Notes: generated by a model from the sequence alone, not told the origin. 64,000 nt of DNA from a virus (IMGVR_UViG_3300010356_000998:1-64000), one strand, 5' to 3'. Shown: positions 1 to 60,722, counted from the stretch's first letter. Numbers and translations: made by a program.

Positions 1-1185
1 ACAAAAGGAGAATCCTATGTATTTTCAGATGTTTTAGTAAATCCATTAACAGGTAATCATTTTAATAAAGACGCTGCTAAAATTAATAAAAAGTATTCTA
101 AAGCTGATTCTTATAAAGAAGAACAAAATGCTTTAGAATTTTCTATGAATAGATTATCTATGTTAAATGAGATTGTAAAACCTAAAGAACAATCTACACA
201 ATTATTTAATGGTGGTCCTACTAATAAAAAATATTCTACTATAGATGATCAAACTAATTTTCCTATGGAAGAATTAAGTGTACCATTATCAGATAACTGG
301 TTTTACGATGCTAAGACAGATCAATTATACGATCCTCCTTTGCAACAACCTTCTCCTATAGATACAAGTCTGATTAAAAAACCAATGGCTGATAGAAGTA
401 ATCCTACTTTAAATACTGTAGATGCGCCTATAACCACTGATAGAACTGATTATGTAAGTCCTTTTGATAGAACACCTAAAAATACTGAATTTAATTATAA
501 TACTGTAGCTTTAGGTTTGAAAGGTTTAGGTTTAGCAAAATCTATAGCGGATTCATTAGAACCTGCTGAAATAGAAAAACCTATTTTACCAGATTATAGA
601 CAATCTGATAAACAAATGTATGCTACTAATATTGATTATACCCAAGCTAAACAAGATGCTTTAGCAGCTTCTAATTTAGCTGGTAACATTAATAGAAGTG
701 CTTCTGGTTCTTTAGAGCAATACATGGGTAGACAAGCTGGTAACTATGCTAATTATGCTGACAATATAGGTAGGATATCTATGAAAGAAGCGTTAGATAG
801 AAATCAACAGTATGTACAAAGAGCAGGCTATGAACAAGGTAAAGCATTAGACACATCCAATAGATTGTATCAAAATAGAATCGATAATCAAATGAATAGA
901 GCTAATGCAAACTTAGCCGATCAAAAATTATTCACTGAGTTGACTCAAATAGGTTCTGAATTTAATCAGTATCAAAATTATAAAGAAATGGTACAAAATA
1001 ATAAAGAACTTACACAAGCTTATATAAATGAAGGACTTGCTATTTTAAATTCTAAAAATACTAATTTTGGTTTTTCTGAAGATTTTATTGAAAGAATTAA
1101 ATCAGGAAAAGCTAGTATTGATGATTTAGTTAAATTTGTAGCAACCACTCAATCTACTAAAGCAGAAACTAAAACAACTGACTAA
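1..1185 (+). CDS. crAss-like virion cargo/ejection protein, 5'-truncated by the window
   Basis: Frame 1 is open from base 1 (TKGESYVFSDVL...) into the listed 145..1185 ORF. It is Gln/Ala/Asn-rich and helical, and lies upstream of the giant virion RNAP genes. Confidence 0.55.
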   Translation, partial: TKGESYVFSDVLVNPLTGNHFNKDAAKINKKYSKADSYKEEQNALEFSMNRLSMLNEIVKPKEQSTQLFNGGPTNKKYSTIDDQTNFPMEELSVPLSDNWFYDAKTDQLYDPPLQQPSPIDTSLIKKPMADRSNPTLNTVDAPITTDRTDYVSPFDRTPKNTEFNYNTVALGLKGLGLAKSIADSLEPAEIEKPILPDYRQSDKQMYATNIDYTQAKQDALAASNLAGNINRSASGSLEQYMGRQAGNYANYADNIGRISMKEALDRNQQYVQRAGYEQGKALDTSNRLYQNRIDNQMNRANANLADQKLFTELTQIGSEFNQYQNYKEMVQNNKELTQAYINEGLAILNSKNTNFGFSEDFIERIKSGKASIDDLVKFVATTQSTKAETKTTD

Positions 1186-3872
1186 TGGCTATTACAAGAT
1201 TTGATAAATTTACTCCGAGAGATTATAACATGGAGTGGTATGCTCCTAAAGAATTCATGCCAAATTTTGAAGCATGGTCTGAGTTGTTATCTACTCAACA
1301 ATCTAAATATGATCAAGCTATATTAGCTAGCCAAAAGTTACCTAAACATTTACAGCATAGAACTGATCTTGCTGGAGAATATAAACAAAAGGTTACTTCT
1401 GGAATAGATGATATTAGTAAAACGTATATGGAAAAAGGCTTAACCGAAGGAAATCGTAAAATGCGAGACTTCGGTTTAGCCTATAGCCAAGATTGGCAGC
1501 CTGGTGGATTAGCTTATGAACTTGAACAAGAGTATTCTGATTATGCTACTGCACAAAAACAAATAGATGATTATTATAAAGACAATAAAGCAGAGCATTC
1601 TGTAAATAGAAGGTTTTCATTAGATGCATTAGGTAAAGCTGCTAAACAAGAATTTAAATTTAATCCTGAAACAAATATGTATCAGAGAGCTAATATTTCA
1701 GCAGACTTACGACCTTATGTTGATATTATGGAAGAAGCTCAGAAGGTTGTTAGAGACATTAAAGAAAATGGATATACTGATATTGTATCAATGTCTCCAG
1801 CATGGTTTATGAAAATACAAAAAGAAGAAGTAACTCCTGAAACAATTAAAGAAGTTACGGAAGCTTTAATGCAACAACCTAAATACGCAGAGCAAAGACA
1901 ATTAGAATTGTGGGGAGAAAAACAAAAATATACTCCAGAACAATTGGTTGAGTTAGAAAATAAAGCTAAAGAGAATTTAAAAACTAATTTAGATAGTGTT
2001 ATATCTGAAGCTGAAAAATTAAAGAGTACTAAAAAAGGAAAAGAAGCTTTGCAAACAATGTTACAAAAACAAGGTTATTACACTGGAAAAATTGATGGTG
2101 ATTTTGGTAAAGAATCTCAAGAAGCTTATGAAAAATTTATTCAAGATTCTCAAGCAAAAGTAAATAAAAAAATAGAAAATGTTACTGCAGATTCTATTTT
2201 AAATGATAGAATTTTAAATAATTATACTGAACCTTTGGTAAGAGCTTATGCTAGACAAAAAGTAGAAAAAGACTTAGTATTTAATAAAGAGTGGGAAGTT
2301 AAAATAAATTTACAAGCTCAAAGGGAAAATACAGGAGCTTTAGTTACAGCAATTCAATCTTTAAACAGTCCTGCTCAAAGTGAAGTATTAGTAAGTCCTG
2401 GTTTAAGCAGACCTATGGAAACTATTGATGATTTAAGAAAAACTTACAGTAATACGTATGATCAATCTAAGAAAGCATTTAATGATATAGCTAATATATC
2501 TGGTCTCACTGGATTACTTGGAACATCTGCACCTAATACAATTCATACAGTAACTGAAATAAGAGAACGATCTGCCACACCAGAAGAATTTAAAAAGAAT
2601 TTAATGACTGTTGGTATAGTAGCTGATTCTGATAAATTATGGGATTATTACAATTCTCCTTCTTCAGAAGGTTTAAAGAATTCTTATTTATCAATGCAAC
2701 AAGCTAAACATGATTTAAATGAAGCTAAAAATGCAACAATTGGTTTGTTTGGTAATTATTTTAATACACCAGAAGGAAAAAAAGAAATGGCTTTTATCAA
2801 GAGAGAGTATGGATTAACTAATAAAAAAGATGATGAAGTAATTAAAATGATACTTGAAGATGATCCTAAATTTAGCACTAAACCAAAACAAGCATCTTGG
2901 AGAAGTGTAACAACAGGTATGGAAAACCCTTCTCCTGCAACTTATGTTAATGAACTTGATAGATTAAAACAAAAAATTAATGAAGCAGCAAGAACTAATC
3001 CTGGACTATTTCCAATATCATTAAGAGGTTATGCTTTAACAGCTAAAGAAGGACCATTGGCAGATTTAAATGGATTAATTGTAGAAGATTTAAAAACTGG
3101 ATACACTTTAGGTTATACAAGTGATAGTGGAGATGGTATGAGATTTGCTGAAGCTACGCCTACTGGAATAGGTGGTTCAGTAGATTTCGAAGATGTAAAT
3201 CTTGAAAATATGGATGTTAGATTTAATGTAGATCCTAAGGGTGTTACTTATTATATAACGTCTAAAGAAAAAGGAGAAAAAGGTAGAAATGTAGTTAGTG
3301 TAGTAAGACCACCTGAATCACACAAACCTAAATTAATTCAATCAGCGTTGGAATTAAAAAAACAAGCTGAAGAAACAAAAGATGTTGTTTTAAGAGATCA
3401 GGCGGAATTAATGTATGCAGTTTTAACAAAAGGTGAACAATATAGACAAGCAGTTCAAGATCATATAGAACTTACTCCATTTAATACAACTAAATTATCA
3501 AGTGTAATTGATCCTAATTCAAGTACTGCTTCTCGTACAAGAACCTTTAAAGAAAATAAATATCTTAGTGGAATACCTGTAGGAAATGAGATTGAATCAG
3601 AAAATATGCTTTATCAAAAATTTAAAGTTTTAGATCAAGCTACCGGAGAACAAAGTTATATGATGACTGTACGTACAGATAAAGGATATTTACCAATTAA
3701 AAATGAAAATGGAGGATTATATTATAATTCTTCACAGGCAGCTGAACATCCAATTATACATGAAGAAATGATGTCAAGAATACCTGTAAATGTAAAACAA
3801 CAGAATGTGAAACAAACAAATGTTTCAGAAGAAGATGCGGCAAAGTTAATGTTACTTTTAAACAATAAATAA
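1185..3872 (+). CDS. Large virion/ejection protein with a peptidoglycan-binding (PG_binding_1-like) motif
   Basis: 895 aa with LQTMLQKQGYYTGKIDGDFGKESQEA, a PGBD-type motif. Position in the virion RNAP operon. Confidence 0.6.
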   Translation: MAITRFDKFTPRDYNMEWYAPKEFMPNFEAWSELLSTQQSKYDQAILASQKLPKHLQHRTDLAGEYKQKVTSGIDDISKTYMEKGLTEGNRKMRDFGLAYSQDWQPGGLAYELEQEYSDYATAQKQIDDYYKDNKAEHSVNRRFSLDALGKAAKQEFKFNPETNMYQRANISADLRPYVDIMEEAQKVVRDIKENGYTDIVSMSPAWFMKIQKEEVTPETIKEVTEALMQQPKYAEQRQLELWGEKQKYTPEQLVELENKAKENLKTNLDSVISEAEKLKSTKKGKEALQTMLQKQGYYTGKIDGDFGKESQEAYEKFIQDSQAKVNKKIENVTADSILNDRILNNYTEPLVRAYARQKVEKDLVFNKEWEVKINLQAQRENTGALVTAIQSLNSPAQSEVLVSPGLSRPMETIDDLRKTYSNTYDQSKKAFNDIANISGLTGLLGTSAPNTIHTVTEIRERSATPEEFKKNLMTVGIVADSDKLWDYYNSPSSEGLKNSYLSMQQAKHDLNEAKNATIGLFGNYFNTPEGKKEMAFIKREYGLTNKKDDEVIKMILEDDPKFSTKPKQASWRSVTTGMENPSPATYVNELDRLKQKINEAARTNPGLFPISLRGYALTAKEGPLADLNGLIVEDLKTGYTLGYTSDSGDGMRFAEATPTGIGGSVDFEDVNLENMDVRFNVDPKGVTYYITSKEKGEKGRNVVSVVRPPESHKPKLIQSALELKKQAEETKDVVLRDQAELMYAVLTKGEQYRQAVQDHIELTPFNTTKLSSVIDPNSSTASRTRTFKENKYLSGIPVGNEIESENMLYQKFKVLDQATGEQSYMMTVRTDKGYLPIKNENGGLYYNSSQAAEHPIIHEEMMSRIPVNVKQQNVKQTNVSEEDAAKLMLLLNNK

Positions 3873-3873
3873 A

Positions 3874-6800
3874 ATGCCTGAAATTACAATACCAAGTACA
3901 AACACTAAGTTTGATCCTAAAGTTAGTTTGTTTGAAGAAGCTAATAAACTAGGAGTTAAACCGTTAGTGTTAGCTGATAAAAAATTTAGTGTAGATTCTC
4001 AATCGAACACTTTAAATAGTTTTAGTAATATAGATGCTTCTGAATATGGAAAAAACACTTCGCTGTTTGGTTCTGATTCAGAAGCATCAGCTATTTTAAA
4101 TGAGCAGCGAGCTCAAAATCAAGGAGCTGGTGAACAATTATTAAAAGGATTAGGTCATCTAACTTCTACAGTAGGAACTGAAATATTAAAAGTACCTGGT
4201 TATATAGGAGGATTAGTTGCAGCACCAGCTATGGAAGGTTCACTTATAGAAAATATAGTAGATAATGCTTGGGTTAATGCTTTTGAAGAATTAGATGAAG
4301 GTATTAAAAATCAAATGCCTGTATATTTAACCAAGGAAGTTCAAGAAGGTGGTATTGGTAGAAAATTAGCTTCGTCAGCATGGTGGGCTACTACTGGTGC
4401 TGAAGGTATCGGATTTATGTTATCAATGTTTGCACCTGGTCAAGCTTTAAAAGCTTTAGGTGTTGGTGCTAAACTAGGAAAAGGAATTCAAGCTATAGCA
4501 AAAGAATCTAAATTAGCAAAAATAATTACATCAGAGAAGTTTTTAAAACCTACATTGAATGGTTTAGAGATGACAAGTGATGGCGTTTCTAAAATAGAAT
4601 CTACTGCTGCCATAGCTTTAAATACTTATATAGAAGCTGCTGCTGAAGGAGCTAATACATTTGATAATGTAAGAAAACAGTACTTACAAGATAACCCAGA
4701 TGCTTCCGATGAAGAGGCTAGAAAAGTTGCTAGTGAAGCTGCGGCTAATGTAGTAAAAGCTAATATAGGTGTACTACTTCTGTCTAATGGATTGGATGAA
4801 TTATTTTTATTTAAAGGTTTTGCCGGAGGAGCTGAGAAAATGGCTGAAAAAAGTGTTTTAGGTAAAATTATGAAAAATGGTATTATAGATGTAGACGAAG
4901 CCGGTAAATTAAAAAGAGCTGGTTTAAAAGAATTTGTTAAAGCAGCTCCTTTAAAAATAGCATCTAATTTTGCAAAAGAAGGTTTATTTGAAGAAGGTCT
5001 TCAAACTAAAATTCAACAACATTATGAAGATGTTGCTAGTGGTAAAACTAAAGCTTCTTTTACTGAAGATGTTTTAGGTAATTATTTTGAATCATTGTTT
5101 AACGATCCTGCGATGCAAGAAGCTGTTGTATTAGGTGGTATACTTGGTTCAGGTGCTTCAATGTTTAGTTTAGCTTCTGATATTAAACAAAAGAATGAAA
5201 TGTTATATGGTAGAGAAGCATATACTCCTTCAGCGATTGGTAGATTTTTTGGTAAAAAACAAAAAGAAGCTACTAAAGGATTAGTTAATATAATGAATGA
5301 AAACTTTATTAATTCTACAAGAAGTATTTTCGATATTGCTGAAAAAGATGCTGATGGTAATGTGATTAGAGAAAATGGTAAACTTAAAATTAATGAAACT
5401 AAATTAAAAGATTTAGTTGAACAAAAAGAAGGATTACTATTATTAAATCAATTACATAATTTAGCTGTACTTGAAGGTAATAAAGTGGAAGAAGAAATGT
5501 TAGGCGATTTATTATCTTTTAATTACTTTATGCCATTCTTACAACAAGATGGTGGTTTTGAATTATTAAACCAACATATTTCAAATCAGCTTGTTGACTT
5601 AATGGCAAAGAAAACAGAAGATGCTGGTGGAGGTGTACCTACAGAACAAGATAAAGAAAAGTTAAAAACTAAGCTTTTAAGTAAAGCTAAAGAATATAAA
5701 GATATATATGACACTGTCCATAAAACTACAAATACTGAATTTTATATTCCTGTAGATAATCCTCAAGAATACAGTGGTTGGAAAGAGACAGTTAAGAATA
5801 GAAAGATACAAGCTCTAGTTACTCATAATTCTGCTCAAAAAAGTTTAAATGAATTAAATGAAAAATATCCAGAAGGTATTGATGAAAATACATTACCTCC
5901 TGATAAATTTATCGAATATAAACTTACATCTAAACTTAAAGAAGAGTATCAAAAAAGAGTAAATGATGCTAAAGAAACTTATACAAAACTTTCTTCAGAA
6001 AAAGGTCTTAAAGAAGATTATGAAAAATTCAATAAACAAATACAAGAAGATCTTAAAAAAACTGAAGAGATTGTAAAAGAGGAGGCAGAAAAAGATGAAA
6101 AGATAAAAAATAAACTATCATCTGTTAATTCTTTAAAAGCAAAAGCATCAAGTGTTGGATATGAGGAAAATGAAATGGTTTTATTAGAAGATGATTACGG
6201 AGATCGATTTAAATTTAATCCTTCTACTGGAGAAGTTACTAATGCGTTTGGAAAAACTATTGAAGATTTTGAAGATATGTATGTTGTTCCAAAAAATCTT
6301 GTTTCAAAAGAACAACAAGATTTAGAACAACTAAAAACTTCAATGGAAGTAGCTGAACAGTATAAAGAAGTTTTAAATACTCGTCAAAATTATAAAGAAG
6401 ATTTTGATGTAGAATCTGTAAATAATTCTATTAAAGATTTAATAAATGCTGTAAAAACTTTATATGCAGATAGGCTTAATGGTAAACAAGGTAAAACTAA
6501 AAAATTATTTAGATTACCTAAGTTAGATAAAGGTATATCTGAATTAAATAAAGCTATCGATACTTTAAATAAAAGACTTGAGTATCTAGAATCTTTACCT
6601 TTAAATGATCAAACAGTTAAAGATAAGACAATAGAGTTACTTACAAAATTAGTTAATTTAAGAAATACCTTAACTAACATATCTAAATTAAGCGATATAT
6701 CATTTGGTATAGCAGTTAAAGATACATCTTTATTAAATAAATTACATCAAACTTTTCCAAATGCGCCTTATCTATTTAATAAAATAATGGATAAGAAAGA

Positions 6801-9800
6801 TGCTAATAAGGTTTTAGGTTCTAAAAATACTACTTTAAAAAATAATGTAGTAACTAATTTTAAAGATAATTTAGAAGATTTAGATAAAGCTTTAGAAATT
6901 GTAAATAGCGTTAAAGATTATAGTAAATCAGGAGAAGTGTTTATGTCTACACCTGAAGGCATGGATTCTAAAAATTATACTTATGTAACTAATTTAGAAT
7001 CTGATACATTATACGAAAAGCTTAAAGATTTTGATTTAAGTAATGACTACTTTAATGATTTTCATACAGCTTTAGATGAAGTAATTTCTAAAAATTATCA
7101 TGAAGTATCTGAAAAAGTTCTTGAAAAAACAGTACACTCTTCTCAAAAACAAGATGTAGATACAGCAGAAATTACAGAAGAACCAGCCGATTTAGATAAA
7201 ATTTTTGCACAAAAAGCTTTGCCTAAAACTCCTTTTGTTACTACAGGGGTGTCAGTAAAATATGATCAGCAAGGAAAAGATGTAATTAATAATGAAGGCT
7301 ATCCTGAATTAACACCTTTTGAAACACAAAAGAGATGGTTTAATACTATAGATAAGTATGCTGATACTTTACAAGATTATCAATTAGTACCAGTTACAGG
7401 AGCTACAAAAAATCCTGAATTATTAGCTGCAATACAATCTGGGTTTACAAATCCATCATTACTTAATGATACAGATGTATTTGTATTTTTAGTTGATAAA
7501 GATGGTAACTTTGTAAAAGAAAATGGTAAACATGTATTTACTTCTTTACGAAAACCATCTACAATGTTTCCAGAAAACGGAATGGCTAAAGTAGCACCAG
7601 ATTATACTATTAATTTATATTTACAATCATTAGGTGTTCCTGCAGTAGATTCATTTGAAAAAATTAAAAATCAAAAGATAGGTAACTTTGTACTTGGTAA
7701 AAAAGCTCGTGCTAAATTAAAAGATTTAATTGATTCTGATGCAACTGGTCAAACATTATTAGTATTAGCTAATGAGTATGCTAAAGAACAGTATGAAGCG
7801 TTTATTAATGAAATATTAAATAATACTGATTCTAATGTATCTTTGAAAATAGAAGGTGTTACTAAGGGGTATCAATTATATAGAGTTGATAAAAATGGTA
7901 AAAGAATTAAAAATAAAATTCAAGATGTATTTAATAATATTAGTTTTACAAACTTACCCGGTACTAATCAATTAAAAGGTGGTAAAATAGGAGTAGTTGT
8001 AAATGCAGATGTTAAAGTAGGTAATGAATTTTTGAATCTCCCTAAAGGTACTGTTTATTTTCAATTTGATAATAATGAAGTAATTACTTTAGATTCTAGA
8101 ACATTAAATGATAAAGAAGTTTTAACAGTTATTTATTTACTTTCTTTAGCTGATAATAATAAAGATTTAAATACTATTACAATACCTAGTAAAAATGGAT
8201 ATACTTTTAATGGAAAATCTATTGGTAAAAATATTCCAGTATTCTTTAAAAAATCTAAAACTAATGAACAAGCGTTTTCTTTATTAGAAACACTTATTAA
8301 TTATGGTTTAAGAAAAGATACTAAAAATAAAAAAGGAGAAATCTATATTCAATCTGGTAAAGTAGTGTTTACTGATTTTAATGGTAACTTAAATGAAATA
8401 CCTTTAAGTAAGTTAACAGAAGCTATTAAGAATAAGAATAGTTCTGAAATAAAACCTTTAGTTGACTTTTTAAAACAAAAAAGATTTAATGTACATAATC
8501 TGTTAATAAATAATAATCCAACTTTTATTTATCCCATTTATGAAAATGGTAAATTAACAGTTAATGAAAATAGATCTTATTTTGAATTTATGTTTAATGA
8601 AGTGTTGACTACAACAGCTATGAGTAAAGATGGTTATCCTAGAAGATTACAGCGTAATGTAATGTTTGATTCTAAGTTAACTAAAATGTCTAAAAAAGCT
8701 CCTGTTAAACATGCAGAGAATAAACCGGTTGCGTTAGAGACATCGGAAAAAGTAACTGAAGAATCTATAATAAATAGACAAATTTTAGGTTGGAAAACAC
8801 AAATAGAAAAATTATCTCCAAAAGAAATAAAAGATATTTTAAATCATCAATTAAACAATCTTACTGGGTTTGCTGAATTATTGATTAAAATAGGTATTCA
8901 ACCAACAGAAGAACACGTCAATACTATTTTTAATGCTGTTTATGATATTAAACCTAAAGTACCAGTTTTAGAAAATAAAACTAAATCAATAGATGATCAA
9001 ATAGCCGATCAAAAAGCTGATATAGAAAGAAGAAGAAAAGAATCTTTTGAACAAATAACTTCTCCAGAAGATTTCAAAAAATTAGGATTAGAACAAAATA
9101 AAGATGAACCACCTTATTCTACAACTTTAGATGCTGGAGATGAAAATTTAGAAGAAACTTTATTTGCAGATAGTAAAGAAAAACTTATTGATAAAATTAA
9201 TGCTAAATACGATGCTGAAATAGCTGCTTTACAAAATAAAACAGAAGAAATTTTAAAATATAAAAATATTGAGGTTATAGATACTGAAAATATTGTAAAC
9301 GCAGAAGGTAAAAAAGGGGCTGCTCAATTAGATAGAGATAATAATGTTATTAGAATTAATAGAAAAATTCTTAAAGTAAAGTTTGAAGAAAAAGCATGGA
9401 CTAAACCAAGAGACTTAATTGAAGTTATCCACGGTGAAAAAGTTACAAGTGCTGCTCAAGCTTTACCAGAAAATCAGTTTTCTAATTATCAAGAATTTGA
9501 AAATTTTGTTATGGAACATGAATATCAACACTCTATTTATACTAGAGAAGATTTTGATAAAGAGTTTCCTAATAAAACAAAAGGTGACTATGAATCTGAA
9601 ATTAACAATAGAGCTTTAAAAGAGTTGGGTTTATCTGAAAAAATAACTGAACAAGCTTCTTTAGAAAAACCTAAAAAATTATCAGCTAAAGAAAAACTAG
9701 ATAAGTTAAAAGGTGAAAAAAAATCTATTACTTTAAGTAAAACTCCAACAGCTGATAAAAGAATAGATAATGAATCGTTACTTGATTATTACATCAAAAA

Positions 9801-9828
9801 TAACATTGTACAAAAAAATTGTAAATGA
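3874..9828 (+). CDS. Giant virion/ejection protein (RNAP-associated) with a C-terminal zincin-like HExxH motif
   Basis: 1984 aa. The N-terminal part has Gly/Ala hydrophobic helices. The C-terminal part has MEHEYQH...YESEINNRA. Overlaps the RNAP start (ATGA). Confidence 0.65.
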   Translation: MPEITIPSTNTKFDPKVSLFEEANKLGVKPLVLADKKFSVDSQSNTLNSFSNIDASEYGKNTSLFGSDSEASAILNEQRAQNQGAGEQLLKGLGHLTSTVGTEILKVPGYIGGLVAAPAMEGSLIENIVDNAWVNAFEELDEGIKNQMPVYLTKEVQEGGIGRKLASSAWWATTGAEGIGFMLSMFAPGQALKALGVGAKLGKGIQAIAKESKLAKIITSEKFLKPTLNGLEMTSDGVSKIESTAAIALNTYIEAAAEGANTFDNVRKQYLQDNPDASDEEARKVASEAAANVVKANIGVLLLSNGLDELFLFKGFAGGAEKMAEKSVLGKIMKNGIIDVDEAGKLKRAGLKEFVKAAPLKIASNFAKEGLFEEGLQTKIQQHYEDVASGKTKASFTEDVLGNYFESLFNDPAMQEAVVLGGILGSGASMFSLASDIKQKNEMLYGREAYTPSAIGRFFGKKQKEATKGLVNIMNENFINSTRSIFDIAEKDADGNVIRENGKLKINETKLKDLVEQKEGLLLLNQLHNLAVLEGNKVEEEMLGDLLSFNYFMPFLQQDGGFELLNQHISNQLVDLMAKKTEDAGGGVPTEQDKEKLKTKLLSKAKEYKDIYDTVHKTTNTEFYIPVDNPQEYSGWKETVKNRKIQALVTHNSAQKSLNELNEKYPEGIDENTLPPDKFIEYKLTSKLKEEYQKRVNDAKETYTKLSSEKGLKEDYEKFNKQIQEDLKKTEEIVKEEAEKDEKIKNKLSSVNSLKAKASSVGYEENEMVLLEDDYGDRFKFNPSTGEVTNAFGKTIEDFEDMYVVPKNLVSKEQQDLEQLKTSMEVAEQYKEVLNTRQNYKEDFDVESVNNSIKDLINAVKTLYADRLNGKQGKTKKLFRLPKLDKGISELNKAIDTLNKRLEYLESLPLNDQTVKDKTIELLTKLVNLRNTLTNISKLSDISFGIAVKDTSLLNKLHQTFPNAPYLFNKIMDKKDANKVLGSKNTTLKNNVVTNFKDNLEDLDKALEIVNSVKDYSKSGEVFMSTPEGMDSKNYTYVTNLESDTLYEKLKDFDLSNDYFNDFHTALDEVISKNYHEVSEKVLEKTVHSSQKQDVDTAEITEEPADLDKIFAQKALPKTPFVTTGVSVKYDQQGKDVINNEGYPELTPFETQKRWFNTIDKYADTLQDYQLVPVTGATKNPELLAAIQSGFTNPSLLNDTDVFVFLVDKDGNFVKENGKHVFTSLRKPSTMFPENGMAKVAPDYTINLYLQSLGVPAVDSFEKIKNQKIGNFVLGKKARAKLKDLIDSDATGQTLLVLANEYAKEQYEAFINEILNNTDSNVSLKIEGVTKGYQLYRVDKNGKRIKNKIQDVFNNISFTNLPGTNQLKGGKIGVVVNADVKVGNEFLNLPKGTVYFQFDNNEVITLDSRTLNDKEVLTVIYLLSLADNNKDLNTITIPSKNGYTFNGKSIGKNIPVFFKKSKTNEQAFSLLETLINYGLRKDTKNKKGEIYIQSGKVVFTDFNGNLNEIPLSKLTEAIKNKNSSEIKPLVDFLKQKRFNVHNLLINNNPTFIYPIYENGKLTVNENRSYFEFMFNEVLTTTAMSKDGYPRRLQRNVMFDSKLTKMSKKAPVKHAENKPVALETSEKVTEESIINRQILGWKTQIEKLSPKEIKDILNHQLNNLTGFAELLIKIGIQPTEEHVNTIFNAVYDIKPKVPVLENKTKSIDDQIADQKADIERRRKESFEQITSPEDFKKLGLEQNKDEPPYSTTLDAGDENLEETLFADSKEKLIDKINAKYDAEIAALQNKTEEILKYKNIEVIDTENIVNAEGKKGAAQLDRDNNVIRINRKILKVKFEEKAWTKPRDLIEVIHGEKVTSAAQALPENQFSNYQEFENFVMEHEYQHSIYTREDFDKEFPNKTKGDYESEINNRALKELGLSEKITEQASLEKPKKLSAKEKLDKLKGEKKSITLSKTPTADKRIDNESLLDYYIKNNIVQKNCK

Positions 9829-19713: not shown

Positions 19714-22700
19714 AACATTGTAAAGCAGAAAACTTAGAACAATTAAATAATATTGTTCAAAATGGTGGAGTAATTTATACCATAACAGCTAATCAAACTC
19801 AAGACACAACTGTATCTTTTTTAAAACACACTGCTGAAAACTTCTCTAAAAAAGATGGTAAGTATGCTACGAAAGATGGGAAAACTTCATTAAGTACGAC
19901 AGTAACTACTGAAATATCTAAAGTTTTTGAGAAAAAATATGGTAAATTTGTTTATAAAAATTTAGATGTATTAGCTGATTTAGGAACATTTACTCACGCA
20001 TTAAATGAAGGTGTTTTTAATTACTTTAATAGTATTACCGAGAATTTAAATACTAACGATACTATTAAAACTATTGAAGAACTTTCTTGGGAAAACATTA
20101 AAAAAGAACTTACAGATGTTTTACTACCTATATATAAAAATTCTGATGTAAAAGTGTTAGCTGGTAAAGGTAGTATGCATAACTTGGAAGCTTTATTAGA
20201 AGGTGCTAAAGAAGTGTTTTTAGGTATTCATAAACATCAAGCAATATTAAATAAAAGACTTGGTATAAATGGAAAGGCCTATATATCAATGGAACAATTA
20301 TTAATAGATCCTAAAGAAGATATAGGAGGGACAGCTGATTTAATAGCTATATATTCAGATAATACTGCTGCTATTTTTGACTTTAAGACAAAAGTACCGT
20401 CTAAGAAATACGTTAATGATAAAGGTGAATTAATTAGTTATGATTACATATCTAAATCAGCTAAAGAAAAATATAAATTACAGTTAGCTTCTTTACAAAG
20501 AATTCTTACAAAAAAATATGGTGTAAAGCAAGTTATTAAATCTAGAATTGTACCTATTCAATTATCCGCACCTTTAGATGAAGAAGGTAATTTAGGTAGA
20601 ACAATTACTAAAATTACTTACGGAGCTAAGCAAAATATATTTTTATCTGAGCTAGCTCCTCTTCCTGAATCAACTGGATATAAAGAATTAGATAATTATT
20701 TAGCTTCAATTGAATCTAAAATAAAAGATCTTAATAAAAAAGGATCTAGTCCAGAAATAAAAAATAAAATAGAAGAATTAGAATTTGTTAAACATACAAT
20801 ACTTGTAAAGAAAAGTTTTAAAGATTTACAAACATACGCTGAGAAAATATTTGAAAATATTGGTGATATTTCTAATTTAAGTTTAGAACAACTTAGAGAA
20901 CTTCGAGATGAATTAAGAGCTTTAACATTACTAAGTAAAGCTACGTATGAATATAAACAATCTATTGAAAATCAAGAAGAAAAAGATGAATTAGATGCAG
21001 CTGTAAGAAGTATATCTACAGTAGCAACCGATATATTATATAATGTTGAGAATGAACTTTATAATAAAAGATTAGCTAACTATGTACATGAATCTACCGG
21101 GTATTCTATTGTAGATCAATCTGGACAATTTATAACATTTACTGAAGAAGGTTTTTTAAATAAGTATTTTAATCAATTAAGTCAGTATGACAATCCTGTA
21201 TTTAAATCACTCAGAGCTACTTTAGATAGTGCTCAATACGATATTAGAGAAAAGGTTAAAAAACTTATTGATGATGTTGTATCCACTGATTCTAAATTAA
21301 GAAAGTGGATGAAAGATAATGGTAAGGATGAAGCTTGGTTAATTAAATCATTAATTAATACAGAGCCTGGAAGTAAAGATGTTGAAAATCTTCATGGTAA
21401 ATTCTCTAAAGAATTTAGAGAAATTTTAAAAAATCTAAAAAGTAAAGAAGATGTTAAAGCTATAAGAAAATATTTTGAACCTAGTAAATACTATTTAGAT
21501 AACATTGATAGATTAAAAGCTGAAAAAAAATTACATTTTGAAAAAACTTTACCTAGTAAAAAAGCAGCTGAATTTGCATATCAGAGATGGCAAGAAAAGA
21601 ACGATTTATCTTTAGATGAAGCTGGAGATCCTATATTTCCTAAAGCTTGGGTTAATCAAATGAAATATAATAAGTTGAGTCTTAAAGATGGTGTAGTTGA
21701 ACAAAACTTATCAGAAGAATATAAATATATTAAATCAATACCACCATTATTAGCTTATTATGAAATGTTTGAAAAATATAATAAAGAATTTAGAGATGTA
21801 TTAGGTGTAGAATATTATACATTACCTAATAATTTTCTACCAAATATTCGTAAAAGTAATATTGATAGATTATTAGATAATGGTCTGATATCAGGATCTA
21901 AAGAAATATTTAATAACTTTATACAAGATCTTGATATTAGAGAAGACGATATGTTATACGGAGAAGTAGATCCTGATACCGGAGAATTGAAAAAAACAAT
22001 TCCTAAGTTTTTTTTAAACCCGTTTAAAAATGAAGATGGTACTATTAAAATAGGTGAGAAAAGTTATGACTTAACTAAATCTTTAATTATATTTAGTAAG
22101 ATGGCTTATAACTATGAATATATGAATAAGATAGAAGCTGTCACACTAACTATGAGAGATTTCTTATCTGAAAAAGGTGAGCAAGTTATTAAACGAGGAA
22201 ATAATATATTAAAAGATAGGGTAGGTAATGAGTTAACATCTAAAATTCAAGGTAAACAAATAGAAGAAATATTTCAATCTTTTGTAGATTTGTATTTATA
22301 TGGTGTGAATGTTAACCCTATTAGCCAAGATTCTTCAGGTAAATATGAAAAACTGATTTTAGAAGCTAAACAGTATTTCACATTAAAAGCTTTAGGTTTC
22401 GGTTTTATTCCAGCTATAGGTTCTTTTTTAGCAGCTAAAACTCAAGCAGCTGTAGAAGGTTTTAAAGGTCAGGCTTATACATCAGAACAGTATAAAAAAA
22501 GTATGAAATATTCTTATTCCGAAAGAGAAAAGTTTCTAGCTTTATCTGGATTCTTTGATCCTATGAATACTAAGTATGACTTTTTTAATGTATCTGACGA
22601 TAAGACTAAAGTAGGTGATCCAAGAGAACGGAATAAAGTAAAAAGATATGTCAATAGTAGAATGTTAATGAGAACTTTTAGTGCAGGTGATGAATATTTA

Positions 22701-23738
22701 GATGAAATTATTTTAGCTTCACTAGCTCAAAACTTTTATATAGATGAGAATTATAAACTTAGAAGAATGATAGATGAAGAAGATAGAAAGAATAAAAAAT
22801 CTATATGGGATATATTTTCATATTCAGATGGTGAAGCTAAGTTAAACGTACCGGAAGATAAACTTAAAGATATTGTAATAGCATTTAGAAGAGCTGCTCA
22901 GTCTACTCAATCAAAAATTAAAGGTGTTATTCCAGAAGAGGATAAAGCATATTGGCAGACTCAAATTATAGGTCAGGTTATAATGCATTTTAAATCTTGG
23001 ATGCCTGGTGTAATGAGAGAGAGATTTGGTAAAACGAGATACAATGATGCTTTACAATTAGTTGAAATGGGTAGATTTACTGCATTTGGACAAGAGCTTT
23101 ATAATCATGAACAATTATCTATACCAATGTTTGCTAAAGAAATAGTTATTCCAAAATTGTTAGAATTAGGTAAACATTTAATGTGGTATAGACCAGGAAC
23201 AGGTTCTGATACTAGATTAGAATTAGCTTATGAAAATTGGCTAAATAATAATCCTCAATACAAAGGCGTAGTTTCTTTTAAAGAATTTAAGTCAGCACAA
23301 CAAGCTCAAATGAAAGCTTTAATCATAGAGCTTAGAATCATATTAACATTTGCTATGTTAGTTGCTTTATTGACAGCAGATTTTGATGATGATGGTAAAA
23401 AGTTTTATCAAGAAATGTGGATTACTAGAAAACTTGTAGCAGTTTTAGCAAAAACAAATCAAGAAATAAGTTTTACTTATAATCCTGCTGAATTTGCTAA
23501 AATGATTAAAAACCCAATACCCATGGCCGGAATATTAACTGATGCTGTAAATGTATTAGCTAATACTTATGATGAAAGTATTGATACAGTATTTGGTGAA
23601 AAATTTCCATTACCGTTTCATAAACCACAAACGCACGATAAAACACAACCGTTATATTATACTGGTAAACTTATTCCGGGTGTTTCACAGCTTGAGAAGT
23701 TCTTAGAAATATTTAATAAAGATAATAGTTTAAAATAA
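19710..23738 (+). CDS. Giant virion protein with an N-terminal PD-(D/E)xK nuclease domain
   Basis: 1342 aa with GGTADLIAIYSDNTAAIFDFKT...YKLQLASLQRIL. Typical last gene of the crAss-like RNAP/ejection operon. Confidence 0.7.
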   Translation: MKHCKAENLEQLNNIVQNGGVIYTITANQTQDTTVSFLKHTAENFSKKDGKYATKDGKTSLSTTVTTEISKVFEKKYGKFVYKNLDVLADLGTFTHALNEGVFNYFNSITENLNTNDTIKTIEELSWENIKKELTDVLLPIYKNSDVKVLAGKGSMHNLEALLEGAKEVFLGIHKHQAILNKRLGINGKAYISMEQLLIDPKEDIGGTADLIAIYSDNTAAIFDFKTKVPSKKYVNDKGELISYDYISKSAKEKYKLQLASLQRILTKKYGVKQVIKSRIVPIQLSAPLDEEGNLGRTITKITYGAKQNIFLSELAPLPESTGYKELDNYLASIESKIKDLNKKGSSPEIKNKIEELEFVKHTILVKKSFKDLQTYAEKIFENIGDISNLSLEQLRELRDELRALTLLSKATYEYKQSIENQEEKDELDAAVRSISTVATDILYNVENELYNKRLANYVHESTGYSIVDQSGQFITFTEEGFLNKYFNQLSQYDNPVFKSLRATLDSAQYDIREKVKKLIDDVVSTDSKLRKWMKDNGKDEAWLIKSLINTEPGSKDVENLHGKFSKEFREILKNLKSKEDVKAIRKYFEPSKYYLDNIDRLKAEKKLHFEKTLPSKKAAEFAYQRWQEKNDLSLDEAGDPIFPKAWVNQMKYNKLSLKDGVVEQNLSEEYKYIKSIPPLLAYYEMFEKYNKEFRDVLGVEYYTLPNNFLPNIRKSNIDRLLDNGLISGSKEIFNNFIQDLDIREDDMLYGEVDPDTGELKKTIPKFFLNPFKNEDGTIKIGEKSYDLTKSLIIFSKMAYNYEYMNKIEAVTLTMRDFLSEKGEQVIKRGNNILKDRVGNELTSKIQGKQIEEIFQSFVDLYLYGVNVNPISQDSSGKYEKLILEAKQYFTLKALGFGFIPAIGSFLAAKTQAAVEGFKGQAYTSEQYKKSMKYSYSEREKFLALSGFFDPMNTKYDFFNVSDDKTKVGDPRERNKVKRYVNSRMLMRTFSAGDEYLDEIILASLAQNFYIDENYKLRRMIDEEDRKNKKSIWDIFSYSDGEAKLNVPEDKLKDIVIAFRRAAQSTQSKIKGVIPEEDKAYWQTQIIGQVIMHFKSWMPGVMRERFGKTRYNDALQLVEMGRFTAFGQELYNHEQLSIPMFAKEIVIPKLLELGKHLMWYRPGTGSDTRLELAYENWLNNNPQYKGVVSFKEFKSAQQAQMKALIIELRIILTFAMLVALLTADFDDDGKKFYQEMWITRKLVAVLAKTNQEISFTYNPAEFAKMIKNPIPMAGILTDAVNVLANTYDESIDTVFGEKFPLPFHKPQTHDKTQPLYYTGKLIPGVSQLEKFLEIFNKDNSLK

Positions 23739-56997: not shown

Positions 56998-57081
56998 GTT
57001 AAGAAATTTAAGTAATAAATAAGAAGCTGGGTTTTGTTTTTGTTAGTAGCGATACAAAACCAGCAATGAAAAAACGCTAGG

Positions 57082-57167
57082 TACTCCGAGCGAGACTCGA
57101 ACTCGCAAGAAGCTTACGCCTCCAAGGGATTTTAAGTCCCTCGTGTATACCATTCCACCACCGGAGC
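57082..57167 (-). tRNA. tRNA-Leu(TAA)
   Basis: Cloverleaf GCTCCGG...AGGGA-CTTAAAA-TCCCT with a long variable arm and TTCGAGT loop. Confidence 0.92.
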
Positions 57168-57232
57168 GAAAAATGTCAGATTAAAACCTATAATTAGGAA
57201 ACTTCTTCTGACAAAAGTTTTATTTTTTGTAA

Positions 57233-57757
57233 TTAGTTTACATTAAAAGCATCCGCTTCTTCTTCCACTTTTGCTGGAGTAAACGCATCTGCAGCTACAG
57301 ATCCGTTATGAGTGATAAAAGTGTGCCGTGCTTCAGAAGCAGGCGTCAAAGAAACTTCACGGTAAATTGGAGACCCGTCTTTCAAAAGAACCTCATTAGT
57401 TTGAGGATTGATTTTTGGAGTTGGGTTTTTGCGAGCTGGATTTGGCGTCAAAGATTCGGTAACCTGCAATTGAAACTCAATCCCAGCTTCAGCTTCAATA
57501 TTTTCAATTGTGGGCCATTCAGCTTGCGGTTTGTTGCTATAATCAGCGTCCGTTGTTCCGAAATATTTCATTGCCTGTTCTTCGCTAAAAGAAACTACAG
57601 CGACTGCTTTTGTTTCACCCGTGATGCCTTGCGTAATTGAAAGAAGCGGATTGCTTGAACCTTTGAAAGTTTGTTGCAGCATCACATTTACTTGGTTTTT
57701 GTCAGAATTAGCGTTTGGCCAAATGCGACGTACCTGAACTTTAGAGAATGGTTTCAT
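57233..57757 (-). CDS. Conserved crAss-like hypothetical protein
   Basis: PKINPQTNEVLLKDGSPIYR motif; higher-GC codon usage. Confidence 0.6.
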   Translation of the reverse strand: MKPFSKVQVRRIWPNANSDKNQVNVMLQQTFKGSSNPLLSITQGITGETKAVAVVSFSEEQAMKYFGTTDADYSNKPQAEWPTIENIEAEAGIEFQLQVTESLTPNPARKNPTPKINPQTNEVLLKDGSPIYREVSLTPASEARHTFITHNGSVAADAFTPAKVEEEADAFNVN

Positions 57758-57800
57758 GTGTGAAAAAGTTGAAATTGTTAAGAGTTATATGGACTGTATT

Positions 57801-58178
57801 CTATTCAGAATCTACAAATCCATATTTTTTGAGTTTTTTTGAATTTTCATAGGCGAATTCGACAATAGTTTTATTGTCTTCATAGCCTATTACCCGGAAC
57901 TTTTCTTGTTTCGGTTTAACAGTTATTCGTTTCTCTTTTTTAGAAAGAGATTTAATAAACTCTTTTTGATACTCAGCTTTAACATCTTCAGAAATATTTT
58001 CTTCTGATATTTTACTGATCAGCATTTGCTGTTTCATCAATTGAGCTGAATTTTCTTGATACTGTTGTTTAGCGATAGCATCATCATGGTTGTTTAAAAA
58101 TTTACCATTAAATACTTTCCCAACAGGTTTCAGAAAATTATTTACTATAAATTTATTATCTTTTCTATATATAATCAT
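57801..58178 (-). CDS. Hypothetical protein
   Basis: Start moved to MIIYRK because the longer ORF overlaps tRNA-Tyr. Confidence 0.5.
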   Translation of the reverse strand: MIIYRKDNKFIVNNFLKPVGKVFNGKFLNNHDDAIAKQQYQENSAQLMKQQMLISKISEENISEDVKAEYQKEFIKSLSKKEKRITVKPKQEKFRVIGYEDNKTIVEFAYENSKKLKKYGFVDSE

Positions 58179-58192
58179 AAAATATAATTTAG

Positions 58193-58276
58193 TGCCGGTT
58201 GATGGATTCGAACCACCCGAACGATTAAGTACCTGAGTTACAGTCAGACCCGCGACCATTTACGGAATAAACCGGC
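58193..58276 (-). tRNA. tRNA-Tyr(GTA)
   Basis: GCCGGTT/AACCGGC acceptor, TCTGA-CTGTAAC-TCAGG anticodon arm, long variable arm. Confidence 0.9.
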
Positions 58277-58327
58277 ATTAAAATCTTACAGTTTTTACAA
58301 CTATAAGAATTATTAATTTTGATTAAA

Positions 58328-58897
58328 CTATTTATAAATTCCTTGTGATAGTACAGTAGGGATGTATGTTACGTACATTTTACAAAATTGAGGATATAAT
58401 TCTAATAATCCTTTTAATGCTTTTTCAGCATCATATTTTGTTTCATATACGCCATAATGAGTGATCCAGTTACCATCTTGTAATTGACTTACTAAAAAAT
58501 CTTTTGGTCTATTTTTAGCTGGAGTTTTTAAATATTCAAATCTAACAGTCCAACAATTACCATAAGACATTTTTCTAACTTTAGTACCAGTTTCAATAGT
58601 ATCTACAGATAAAATTTGAATAATGTTGTAACAACCGTCAAGAATTGCATTAATACGCACTTCTTTAGTTTTTTCTACAATATCATCTTGATTTTCATAA
58701 TAATGTAATACACCTGTATATTTAGGGTGTTTTGTACTACAAATATCTGGTTTGTAGTTTTTAGGAGTTGTGATAGATACGGAATACATTGCTGGACTAG
58801 GATTTGAACTAGTTTCAACAATAGGTGGACAATATACTTGACTGTAAATATGTACAGTCTGAAGTATTGAAATAAGAATAAAAATAATCTTTTTCAT
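58328..58897 (-). CDS. Secreted protein with a possible C-terminal SPOR-like domain
   Basis: Signal peptide MKKIIFILIS...; C-terminal YGVYETKYDAEKALKGL. Confidence 0.5.
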   Translation of the reverse strand: MKKIIFILISILQTVHIYSQVYCPPIVETSSNPSPAMYSVSITTPKNYKPDICSTKHPKYTGVLHYYENQDDIVEKTKEVRINAILDGCYNIIQILSVDTIETGTKVRKMSYGNCWTVRFEYLKTPAKNRPKDFLVSQLQDGNWITHYGVYETKYDAEKALKGLLELYPQFCKMYVTYIPTVLSQGIYK

Positions 58898-58911
58898 TGT
58901 TTAATTTTTAG

Positions 58912-58984
58912 TGATCCCGACAGGGGTCGAACCTGTAGCCTACAGATTAGAAATCTGTTGCACTATCCTTTGTGCTACGGGACC
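58912..58984 (-). tRNA. tRNA-Arg(TCT)
   Basis: GGTCCCG/CGGGATC acceptor and ACAGA-TTTCTAA-TCTGT anticodon arm. Confidence 0.92.
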
Positions 58985-58991
58985 AGGTTAT

Positions 58992-59141
58992 TTAATGTTT
59001 ACAACTACCGTCACAATCTGCAACAACTTTACATCGTTTTACACAATGCCAAGTTATTTTTAACAATGGTTTACAAATACATGGAAATTGATGTCCATTA
59101 ATTGTAACCCAACCAGTATCGTCACAAAGTTTACATTTCAT
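58992..59141 (-). CDS. 49-aa Cys-rich microprotein (not in ORF track)
   Basis: MKCKLCDDTGWVTINGHQFPCICKPLLKITWHCVKRCKVVADCDGSCKH* fills the gap between two tRNAs. Confidence 0.6.
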   Translation of the reverse strand: MKCKLCDDTGWVTINGHQFPCICKPLLKITWHCVKRCKVVADCDGSCKH

Positions 59142-59156
59142 ATAAATTTATTTTAG

Positions 59157-59229
59157 TGGGCCCAGCAGGACTTGAACCTACAACCCTCAAATTATGAGTT
59201 TGGCGCTCTACCGATTGAGCTATGGGCCC
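59157..59229 (-). tRNA. tRNA with CAT anticodon, probably Ile2
   Basis: GGGCCCA/TGGGCCC acceptor and CTCATAA loop; the acceptor is Ile2-like. Confidence 0.85.
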
Positions 59230-59272
59230 GGTGTTTTAATACACACTTTTAATTGTAATATAATATTTTTGA

Positions 59273-59370
59273 TGACACTAGCAGGAATTTAACCTACCAC
59301 AACCGCAGAAGAACTAGTATTACGTTGGTTCGCCCACATACAAATGTAGTGTTCAGGAACATGTAGTGTC
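59273..59370 (-). ncRNA. tRNA-like RNA with a non-canonical D/anticodon region
   Basis: Perfect acceptor GACACTA/TAGTGTC plus A, and T arm GTAGG-TTAAATT-CCTGC. The interior is not a standard cloverleaf. Confidence 0.55.
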
Positions 59371-59376
59371 GAGTTT

Positions 59377-59646
59377 TTAATTATAGATAGATTGTAATAA
59401 TCTACCTAAAATGTGTTTGTTTTTTGGATTCCATCCGTTGATTACTCTCATGGTGGAATCAACATATAAATTCGATAATCCACGATGTATTACATGTGGC
59501 TTACTTGAATTCATAATGTTATCTATTTGTTGAGTATTTAATTCAGGTATTTCAAATTGTACATCAGCAAATGATTTATAAGCCTGTGTACAATCTTCAT
59601 AATCTGAAATAAATAATTGCGGATGCTGTTCTGGTGATATTATCAT
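59377..59646 (-). CDS. Hypothetical protein
   Basis: 89-aa ORF. Confidence 0.45.
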   Translation of the reverse strand: MIISPEQHPQLFISDYEDCTQAYKSFADVQFEIPELNTQQIDNIMNSSKPHVIHRGLSNLYVDSTMRVINGWNPKNKHILGRLLQSIYN

Positions 59647-60065
59647 GATGTTACATATTTAACAGCGTTAATGTAATCGTTTTTTAAAGGACTACCTGCA
59701 TAATATTTCTTAATTCTTTTTATTACTTCTGCAGGATATTCTCCATGTATACCACTACCATTACATATCCATACTTTTCCTTTATAACCGTAAATGGTTC
59801 TTTCTTTATAACCCAAATGTCTAGATACTTTAATTTTGGGTACATATACAATTTGGTTATAATTATAAATAATAAGACTAACTAAAACTATAAATACTGG
59901 AAAAGCAATTAATGTTTTGAAAAATTCTACTTCTATTGGATAAGTTTTCTTTTCCGAATTTAATAAAGAAATTGCTGACTCTAAATCTAATGCTAAATTA
60001 TAATTTAAATAATTGTTAATTAAATTTAGCATAATTAAAATCATTAAAAGAATTAAAAGTTCCAT
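59643..60065 (-). CDS. Membrane protein
   Basis: Two hydrophobic helices. Start moved to MELLILL to avoid the upstream tRNA-like gene. Confidence 0.5.
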   Translation of the reverse strand: MELLILLMILIMLNLINNYLNYNLALDLESAISLLNSEKKTYPIEVEFFKTLIAFPVFIVLVSLIIYNYNQIVYVPKIKVSRHLGYKERTIYGYKGKVWICNGSGIHGEYPAEVIKRIKKYYAGSPLKNDYINAVKYVTS

Positions 60066-60120
60066 AATTAAATATTTAAGAATGATAAAAATCAAAGAAG
60101 AAAAATGATAAAACTGTCTT

Positions 60121-60193
60121 TGTTGCATACGGGGCTCGAACCCGTAATTCAAAATCCGAAATTTTTGCGATCAACCAATTGATCTAATGCGAA
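60121..60193 (-). tRNA. Degenerate tRNA, probably Arg(TCG)-like
   Basis: Good D arm (GATC/GATC) and T arm (ACGGG-TTCGAGC-CCCGT). The acceptor has mismatches and the anticodon loop is (A)TTTCGGA. Confidence 0.55.
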
Positions 60194-60219
60194 GTAAGTT
60201 TTATCTAACTATCTTTGAT

Positions 60220-60296
60220 TGGTGGCGGGTACGGGACTTGAACCCGTGATCTCCAGGTTATGAGCCTGGCGAGATACCAACTTCTACCAACCCGCT
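60220..60296 (-). tRNA. tRNA-Met(CAT), initiator-like
   Basis: A1xC72 mismatch, CCAGG-CTCATAA-CCTGG anticodon arm, encoded CCA. Confidence 0.88.
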
Positions 60297-60311
60297 ATTT
60301 GTTTCTTCAAA

Positions 60312-60491
60312 TCACTTAATAAGTATGATTATCGCTAATACCATCAAACTTGATACGACAGCAACCGTTGAAGTTATCCGTTCATATTTAGGGTGTGGTG
60401 TATCTTCAAGATACCTGTAAGTTAGGTTAAGTGCAGTTGCAGTAAAGGCAACTCCGAACAAAAACATCTCTATACAAAGTATCCAATTCAT
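60312..60491 (-). CDS. Small two-TM membrane protein
   Basis: Start MNWILC, downstream of a structured RNA. Confidence 0.45.
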   Translation of the reverse strand: MNWILCIEMFLFGVAFTATALNLTYRYLEDTPHPKYERITSTVAVVSSLMVLAIIILIK

Positions 60492-60501
60492 TTCAAAAAG
60501 G

Positions 60502-60603
60502 GAGTCTTGATCCCTATGCACCCGCATTAGAGGAGTTCACTCGCTGGTTAATTCCAGATGTGCATCTTAACTCCATCTATCAACAGTTTTACGGTCAAGA
60601 CTC
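60502..60603 (-). ncRNA. Candidate stem-closed pseudoknot RNA (element B)
   Basis: GAGTCTTGA/TCAAGACTC closing stem; crossing helices GGAGTT/AACTCC and ATGCAC/GTGCAT. Confidence 0.5.
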
Positions 60604-60611
60604 TTTTTTTA

Positions 60612-60707: not shown

Positions 60708-60722
60708 GACTATAACCATCGG

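Follow-up and report, generated by a model that had tools for sequence, protein, structure and literature searches.

Podoviruses such as T7 (gp14-16), P22 (gp7/16/20) and N4 (gp51/gp52/vRNAP) store ejection proteins in the capsid and pass them through the tail ahead of or with the DNA. Crassviruses, the most abundant viruses of the human gut, carry a cargo that resembles these proteins in being large, capsid-stored and passed through the tail. To our knowledge no covalent end-to-end links have been reported among such podovirus ejection proteins. A tether of this kind between cargo proteins appears so far to have been seen only in an unrelated cyanophage: in the pre-ejectosome of cyanopodophage A4 (A-4L) a cryo-electron microscopy (cryo-EM) map revealed a gp27-gp26 disulfide, Cys1715-Cys5, that stabilises a C-terminal helix docked in the partner, a single bond that the authors reported without generalising it (PNAS 2025, PMC12002296). 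Here we describe a cysteine pattern in a crAss-like phage known from a stretch of 64,000 nucleotides (IMGVR_UViG_3300010356_000998:1-64000; "the window" below means this whole stretch). Four cargo proteins, namely protein A, the virion RNA polymerase (RNAP), an ART-PolyVal module and protein D, carry six cysteines between them, all at ends that face a neighbour, and we think it probable that they are tethered end to end by Cys-Cys links, most likely disulfides, into one unbranched cargo thread.

In the A-4L record gp27 has 1717 residues with its sole cysteine at 1715, and gp26 has 1114 residues with its sole cysteine at 5. A4 is therein like the window, where a giant ejection protein with a sole cysteine near its C-terminal end is followed by an ejection protein with a sole cysteine near its N-terminal end. 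No BLAST match better than E 0.3 was found between A4 gp26/gp27 and crAss proteins, and the likeness appears to be one of mechanism and not of descent. A4 has a single bond, which joins two members of a T7-like core, and lacks an RNA polymerase; the window and the crassviruses would have three consecutive links and exchangeable modules, under a rule that follows the splitting and fusing of genes throughout a phage order.

The cargo blocks of cultured crassviruses, gp078-gp077-gp076 in phi14:2 and gp47-gp50-gp49 in crAss001, consist of proteins homologous to those of the window with an identical terminal-cysteine pattern. Their proteins were found in virions by mass spectrometry (MS), according to record notes and papers. 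The window differs from both in an extra ART module with both connectors, in ferritin-like and DUF5675 genes interleaved with the block, in a zincin domain that belongs to the RNAP and not to A, and in an intron within the catalytic motif. In crAss001 virions, intermolecular disulfides occur among tail proteins and at the portal vertex, and gp47, gp49 and gp50, unresolved in the cargo zone of the capsid, must partly unfold to exit; the word "cysteine" is absent from this structural atlas, which speaks of disulfides for no proteins other than those of the tail and the portal vertex (PMC10172136). Neither "cysteine" nor "disulfide" occurs in the preprint on the phi14:2 RNAP (10.1101/2020.03.07.982082) or in a 2026 N4 paper, which calls for structures of crassvirus cargo, and our full-text literature searches found no paper on the cysteines of crassvirus cargo.

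The window corresponds to bases 1-64000 of a source virus record of 108,742 bases that is 99% complete. As determined by calling and translation of open reading frames (ORFs), the plus strand of window 1-23738 is the late operon of a crAss-like phage, in which the cargo block is laid out as follows:

3874..9828, plus strand: protein A, 1984 residues, homologue of phi14:2 tag gp078; sole cysteine 1983 (codon 9820-9822), in ...IVQKNCK
9825..14340 (ORF 9825-14345), plus strand: virion RNAP exon 1; sole cysteine 3 (codon 9831-9833), in MSCTYTYRGK; ends ...KVGAD
14341..15296, plus strand: putative group I intron, borders approximate, carrying a LAGLIDADG ORF at 14564-15268
15297..17839 (ORF 15461-17839), plus strand: virion RNAP exon 2; begins FDIDKLSVYW; sole cysteine codon 17804-17806
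18324..19271, plus strand: ART-PolyVal module, 315 residues; cysteine 3 (codon 18330-18332), in MICPNLSN, and cysteine 313 (codon 19260-19262), in ...GKLQITCTI
19710..23738, plus strand: protein D, 1342 residues, homologue of crAss001 gp49 and phi14:2 tag gp076; sole cysteine 4 (codon 19719-19721), in MKHCK

Within the ORF 15461-17839 the sole cysteine is residue 782 of 792, 11 residues from the end, in ...EQECKGSNKRNIIK, and the 55 exon-2 codons before the ATG at 15461 contain none. Joining the exons gives an RNAP of ~2352 residues with cysteines 3 and ~2342 only; the D/F join adds one residue to the computed values of 2351 and 2341. The four proteins thereby amount to ~5990 residues with six cysteines (A 1983/1984; RNAP 3 and ~2342/~2352; module 3 and 313/315; D 4/1342), each 2-11 residues from the neighbour-facing end, and both outer ends, including the C-terminal end of protein D, are without cysteine. 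Our recount agrees with the initial annotation of this DNA, which had put six cysteines in ~6000 residues, all near ends: the four proteins have no internal cysteine, and the termini that it quoted (IVQKNCK, MSCTY, EQECKGSNKRNIIK, MICPN, GKLQITCTI, MKHCK) are all present in the translated sequence. Translation also confirmed that the first protein lacks an N-terminal cysteine, the last a C-terminal one and the 895-residue upstream protein any cysteine. For its series of four proteins the cysteine counts stood, but three further ORFs of the interval (endonuclease, ferritin-like and DUF5675), all with internal cysteines, had been omitted; as these are interleaved, the cysteine-bearing genes are not strictly adjacent.

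Taking the 47 minus-strand genes of the window as a basis (mean 1.46% cysteine), ~86 cysteines were expected in the four proteins versus six observed (Poisson P for six or fewer ~2e-29), and the chance of six cysteines landing one each in the six junction-facing zones of 11 residues is ~3e-14. Chance is excluded as the source of the pattern. The triplets TGT and TGC occur six times in frame in the cargo genes, whereas the two other frames hold 79 and 283 of them, and since they are common out of frame the depletion of cysteine is selected at the protein level. A cause at the DNA level, either the ATGA overlap of neighbouring genes or a TGTAAA-like junction motif, was rejected, because the rule holds without overlap (some junctions among relatives have no ATGA overlap) and for partners on opposite strands, and because TGY is frequent out of frame.

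INPHARED phages gave no match to the 19.9-kb region by megablast or to RNAP exon 2 by tblastn, and a scan of IMG/VR gave none either; relatives were therefore reached via protein searches. BLAST linked A to phi14:2 gp078 (1.7e-41), D to crAss001 gp49 (3.7e-10) and phi14:2 gp076 (8e-8), and the zincin region to crAss001 gp47 (1e-8). All 31 full-length RNAP homologues, at identities given as 23-83% and as 23-62%, have a cysteine at residues 3-7 and another within the last 14 residues, with only 3 internal cysteines in 74,850 residues, and both terminal cysteines are among only 35 invariant columns of the RNAP alignment. The C-terminal cysteine of A (..[NKH]CK or GCK) is present in 11/11 orthologues, which have no N-terminal cysteine (0/11) and no internal one in 19,979 residues; C1983 is invariant across 14 sequences. 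Among D homologues at 37-80% identity a cysteine stands at residues 3-5 in 31/31 and at the C-terminal end in 0/31, with 4 internal cysteines in 41,887 residues. The junctions fall into recurring classes, each with end motifs specific to the partner: A ending in ...QNCK and then RNAP starting MSCTYxYxGK; RNAP with ...ECKG.. and then M.ICPNLS; and the module with ...GKLQI.C.I (GKLQITCTI in the window) and then D with M.CK..N.EEL. The proposed enrichment of terminal cysteines in homologous operons is borne out in the RNAP, A and D families.

For a wider sample of the D family, the first 600 residues of D served as profile in an exhaustive search, which yielded 150 representatives of <50% mutual identity, 87 of them stand-alone. 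The stand-alone forms carry a cysteine in the first 8 residues in 80/87 cases and at the C-terminal end in 0/87, with 16 internal cysteines in 118,349 residues. The DNA was inspected for three of the seven exceptions, and P0199, P0190 and P0189 were discarded as real exceptions: one follows a gap in its scaffold, one is truncated by its contig end and one is the second half of a frameshifted fusion. P0199 (L020 ~8066) begins after a run of N, and the true gene starts MSCQVK right after an upstream ...DNCNN; the frameshifted module-D fusion is without cysteine on either side of the break. In L022, a module ORF of 419 residues (7770-9029) overlaps the D ORF (9001-13278) by 29 bases in another frame, which looks like a frameshift, either an error or a programmed one, inside a module-D fusion gene. 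Two further apparent exceptions were traced to wrong start codons: crAss002 gp33 (L010, NC_055828) probably begins 32 codons downstream at MSCTPS, and D of L004 (17860) begins at MTCKTIED, 8 codons upstream.

The fate of the cysteines in fused genes is telling. The RNAP+module fusions P0043, P0049, P0059, P0060, P0062, P0066 and P0068 retain the two outer cysteines only. The A+RNAP fusion gp33 of Fpv1 (4401 residues) has its sole cysteine at 4400 and is followed by a protein with cysteine 3, and the junction pair is likewise gone from the A+RNAP fusions of Suoliviridae. The module+D fusion gp077 of cr1_1 (2007 residues), which begins MSIICPNLKN and combines an ART-PolyVal domain with a D-like C-terminal half, keeps cysteines 5 and 1884 only, and the RNAP+D fusions of p-crAssphage and crAss002 keep the N-terminal cysteine and have none at the C-terminal end. 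Among whole polyproteins, two of 4293 and 2917 residues have no cysteine and two of 5320 and 5894 residues have one each. The terminal cysteines had been proposed to covary with gene splits and fusions, and indeed the pair is lost at all three fused junction types. It also follows breaks that have moved: the zincin (HEAFH) domain is at the RNAP N-terminal end in the window and at the C-terminal end of crAss001 gp47 (residues 2116-2305 of 2341) and p-crAssphage gp45 (1669-1847 of 1957), and in all three phages the cysteines are at the actual protein ends, not next to the zincin domain. As the pair is absent in fusions and shifts with the break point, it belongs to the break itself, wherever the break lies, and this covariation with gene architecture is the strongest evidence for the tether.

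We propose the following mechanism. Protein A, the virion RNAP, the ART module and D would constitute an RNA-polymerase cargo block packed in the capsid, in which a short conserved end motif of each protein docks onto the next protein. The single C-terminal cysteine of one protein would then bond, most likely in a disulfide, with the single N-terminal cysteine of its neighbour, to give a thread of ~6000 residues, A-S-S-RNAP-S-S-module-S-S-D. The cysteine link would replace the peptide bond that is present where the genes are fused, and the purging of all other cysteines would leave no opportunity for a wrong link, a loop or a branch in proteins that pass partly unfolded through the tail.

The short module has a cysteine at both ends and varies in content. 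Its ART-PolyVal domain (PF18760, residues 152-242) scores 48.8 bits against a Pfam cut-off of 31.2. Among relatives the N-terminal part (M.ICPNLS) and a C-terminal domain of ~55 residues (..YFPDY..N..QR..VA.LVE.GKLQI.C.I) are conserved and the middle is variable: it holds ART in the window, nothing in forms of 181-184 residues, a HELVH zincin in L005, P0059, P0060 and P0066, and probably cpYpsA in P0049, where the Pfam match is to the whole protein. These conserved cysteine-bearing ends around a variable middle agree with the view of the ART gene as a plug-in with both connectors, and the variable middle resembles polymorphic-effector cassettes. Like the ART-PolyVal polyvalent proteins of phages and conjugative elements, the block equips a giant injected protein with an effector domain that varies (ART in the window, a HELVH zincin or cpYpsA among relatives). 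Unlike in those proteins, the effector of the window is a separate small gene between two cysteine connectors and not part of one polypeptide.

In named phages the cysteines are distributed as follows:

phi14:2 (marine, aerobic host): gp078 cysteine 1797/1797; gp077 (RNAP) cysteines 3 and 2179/2180; gp076 cysteine 3; no others
crAss001: gp47 cysteine 2339/2341; gp50 cysteines 5, 1334 and 2404/2412; gp49 cysteine 5
cr111_1 (Steigviridae): gp032 cysteine 1636/1638; gp033 cysteines 5 and 2281/2283 plus 3 internal; gp034 cysteine 3
cr108_1 (Steigviridae): fused A+RNAP gp054 with 2 internal cysteines; exon-2 piece gp053 cysteines 580 and 797/798; gp052 cysteine 5 plus 4 internal
p-crAssphage and crAss002 (Intestiviridae): rule kept at existing junctions
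cr50_1, cr1_1, cr52_1, cr7_1 and cr109_1 (Suoliviridae): rule kept at existing junctions
Flavobacterium phage Fpv1: rule kept at existing junctions

The three phi14:2 proteins, which record notes list as virion proteins by MS, fit the terminal-cysteine rule. In crAss001, gp47 is encoded on the strand opposite to gp50 and gp49, and with partners on opposite strands gene order and DNA context are not the cause of the pattern. The chain had been described as running in gene order; the placement of cysteines at facing ends held, but the rule tracks protein families and not layout, as the crAss001 strands and the interleaved genes of the window both illustrate. In L015, L016 and L019 (cr52_1, cr7_1 and cr109_1) the late genes read through many table-11 stops, and the terminal pair is retained there despite more internal cysteines.

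A profile of 25 full-length homologues identified the split gene as the virion RNAP by a match to PDB 6VR4, the RNAP of phi14:2 virions, with E 1.9e-78. When searched against PDB by phmmer as single sequences, neither the RNAP nor D gave a match, and a D profile gave none. The split gene encodes a two-barrel RNAP homologous to phi14:2 gp66 with a DxDxD catalytic motif, and G-A-D | F-D-I-D spans the intron. The insertion within the catalytic motif was seen by comparison with an uninterrupted homologue, the RNAP of L001 being continuous across the site. The inferred 3' intron border lacks the usual terminal G, and the splice sites are approximate; the two matches to the intron family RF00028 are partial, at 28.2 and 19.5 bits, under the Rfam gathering score of 50. 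RNA sequencing runs that might have revealed splicing contained only 5-6% of the sequence words. The homing endonuclease ORF at 14564-15268 (LAGLIDADG_2, 78.8 bits) has 3 cysteines and lies outside the chain. In 29 of the RNAP homologues found, the gene is cut at this very G-[AS]-D site; it is also cut there in cr108_1, with gp054 ending in ...AKAGSD and gp053 starting LYDIDK. The zincin of the RNAP spans residues 44-192, with its HEAFH motif at residue 81.

A 346-residue protein upstream in the late operon has no cysteine, and the remaining genes next to or between those of the block are:

1185..3872, plus strand: 895-residue protein; no cysteine; weak peptidoglycan-binding matches; outside the chain
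17836..18327, plus strand: ferritin-like gene, 163 residues, between RNAP and module; internal cysteine 103; breaks the terminal rule
19279..19713, plus strand: DUF5675 gene, 144 residues, between module and D; 2 internal cysteines; breaks the terminal rule

The ferritin-like gene (PF00210, 94.9 bits against a Pfam cut-off of 24.5) encodes 163-164 residues, always with cysteine 103, and occurs in four lineages, each time exactly between RNAP and module:

window 17836-18327
L001 16612-17103
L002 18070-18561
L022 7276-7770

The gene might be tied to metal handling or help to oxidise the clasp. In L005 the same spot is occupied by a gene for a DUF5856 product, and no similarity was found between that product and the ferritin-like protein. 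The DUF5675 gene, with its internal cysteines, sits between module and D in the clade of the window:

window 19279-19713
L001 17650-18099
L002 19120-19560
L003 16740-17186

Elsewhere in the window both GC skew and coding strand switch at ~24 kb, and ARAGORN found seven tRNA genes (Leu, Tyr, Arg x2, Met x2, Trp) clustered at 57080-61385 on the minus strand, of which Rfam agrees on six and adds one weak match at 60729-60789.

How firmly do these data speak for a linked chain? The idea as originally put forward, a chain joined in gene order, has in its favour terminal cysteines conserved down to 23% identity, their loss on fusion, the moved breaks and the analogy with A4; the parts of it that did not find confirmation are the bond, which has been seen in no crassvirus, its nature as disulfide or metal bridge, ordered ejection, and release by reduction in the host. 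We infer the bond itself, its chemistry, co-packaging in a fixed ratio, ejection in which protein pulls protein, and release by host thiol reductants. Several observations weigh against the tether. No Cys-Cys bond has been observed for this cargo, which is unresolved in the crAss001 maps. Assembly takes place in a cytoplasm that is reducing, in hosts that are for the most part gut anaerobes, which makes the time and route of oxidation a difficulty; a search of this genome for thioredoxin or glutaredoxin found none, and a search for Erv1 gave no match even in control genomes and is hence uninformative. Cysteine counts alone leave the pairing ambiguous, as a bond between the RNAP N-terminal and C-terminal ends together with one between A and D gives the same numbers. 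Ferritin-like and DUF5675 genes with internal cysteines are interposed between partner genes, p-crAssphage gp47 has a C-terminal cysteine (856/857) with no obvious N-terminal partner, and in some recoded Suoliviridae with many internal cysteines the depletion is relaxed. Multimer prediction of adjacent ends, which had been suggested as a check, helps little: at the A/RNAP junction A 1780-1984 with RNAP 1-260 scored 0.53 (best control 0.00), with contact agreement of at least 69% between runs and a partner pLDDT (predicted local distance difference test) of at least 72. The mark was met by 58/80 solved complexes and 2/110 mismatched pairs, and scores of 0.60 or below comprise 7 of those 80 complexes and both passing mismatches. 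The prediction is thus a weak pass and lends weak support.

Other accounts of the same cysteines have to be weighed against the tether. The terminal cysteines could bind other partners, such as the portal, the inner face of the capsid or other cargo, or their own copies, instead of each other; several cysteine-bearing structural proteins of crAss001 virions form intermolecular disulfides, and the unpaired C-terminal cysteine of p-crAssphage gp47 would suit such a role. We nevertheless consider this unlikely, for it leaves unexplained why the outer ends of A (0/11) and D (0/87) are free of cysteine, why both cysteines are lost at every fusion and a new pair arises at a moved break, and why whole polyproteins, which need packing too, do without any. 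Quite unlikely in our view is that the facing cysteines are joined via a metal ion (Zn, Fe or Cu), a chain of the same logic with another chemistry. Each junction offers two thiols only, with no conserved His, Asp or extra Cys beside them, their position varies (3-7 from the N-terminal end, 1-12 from the C-terminal end) as would be expected of a flexible tether more than of a fixed site, and the only solved case, A4, is a disulfide. A metal bridge would suit anaerobic hosts and assembly in a reducing cytoplasm, and a ferritin-like gene does stand between RNAP and module in the window and in L001, L002 and L022, but most lineages that keep the cysteine rule are without it.

It is harder still to see the cysteines as signals for modification or processing, be it lipidation, thioester chemistry or recognition by a protease where a polyprotein was formerly cleaved. 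The phi14:2 RNAP preprint does suggest cleavage of fused polyproteins (10.1101/2020.03.07.982082), and a zincin protease domain lies at the A/RNAP border, yet the fused forms lack cysteine at the very internal junctions where cleavage would fall; the sequences show no signal peptide or lipobox context, and the asymmetry of N- and C-terminal cysteines along the block fits pairing and not a per-protein tag. These points make a signal role very improbable. Least credible of all, and already contradicted by the conservation of the cysteines, is the absence of any function, with cysteines purged from cargo generally and tolerated only in disordered tails. Other virion proteins of this genome are cysteine-poor as well, but neutral residues would hardly show near-100% retention at 23% identity and occupy invariant alignment columns, outer tails that are equally free never carry a cysteine, and both cysteines are lost together at fusions.

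An end-to-end tether of the cargo proteins would bear on an open question, the storage and injection of ~700 kDa of crassvirus cargo including an RNA polymerase. A strict sequence rule that names the touching ends constrains models of cargo order and topology, and the tether would account for the extreme cysteine depletion of the giant cargo proteins. The rule is also of use in annotation, where it corrects several published start codons and exposes assembly breaks in public records. It is possible, although here we are more tentative, that crassviruses and their Flavobacterium-phage relatives inject a covalent protein thread in which, wherever the ancestral polyprotein gene has been split, the peptide bond gives way to a Cys-Cys clasp and its cognate docking motifs. 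Effector modules (ART, zincin, cpYpsA) might then be inserted, swapped or removed as separate genes with stoichiometry and ejection order fixed, and reduction in the cytoplasm would free an active RNAP. The cysteine link would thereby represent one way in which a polyprotein tolerates the fission of its gene.

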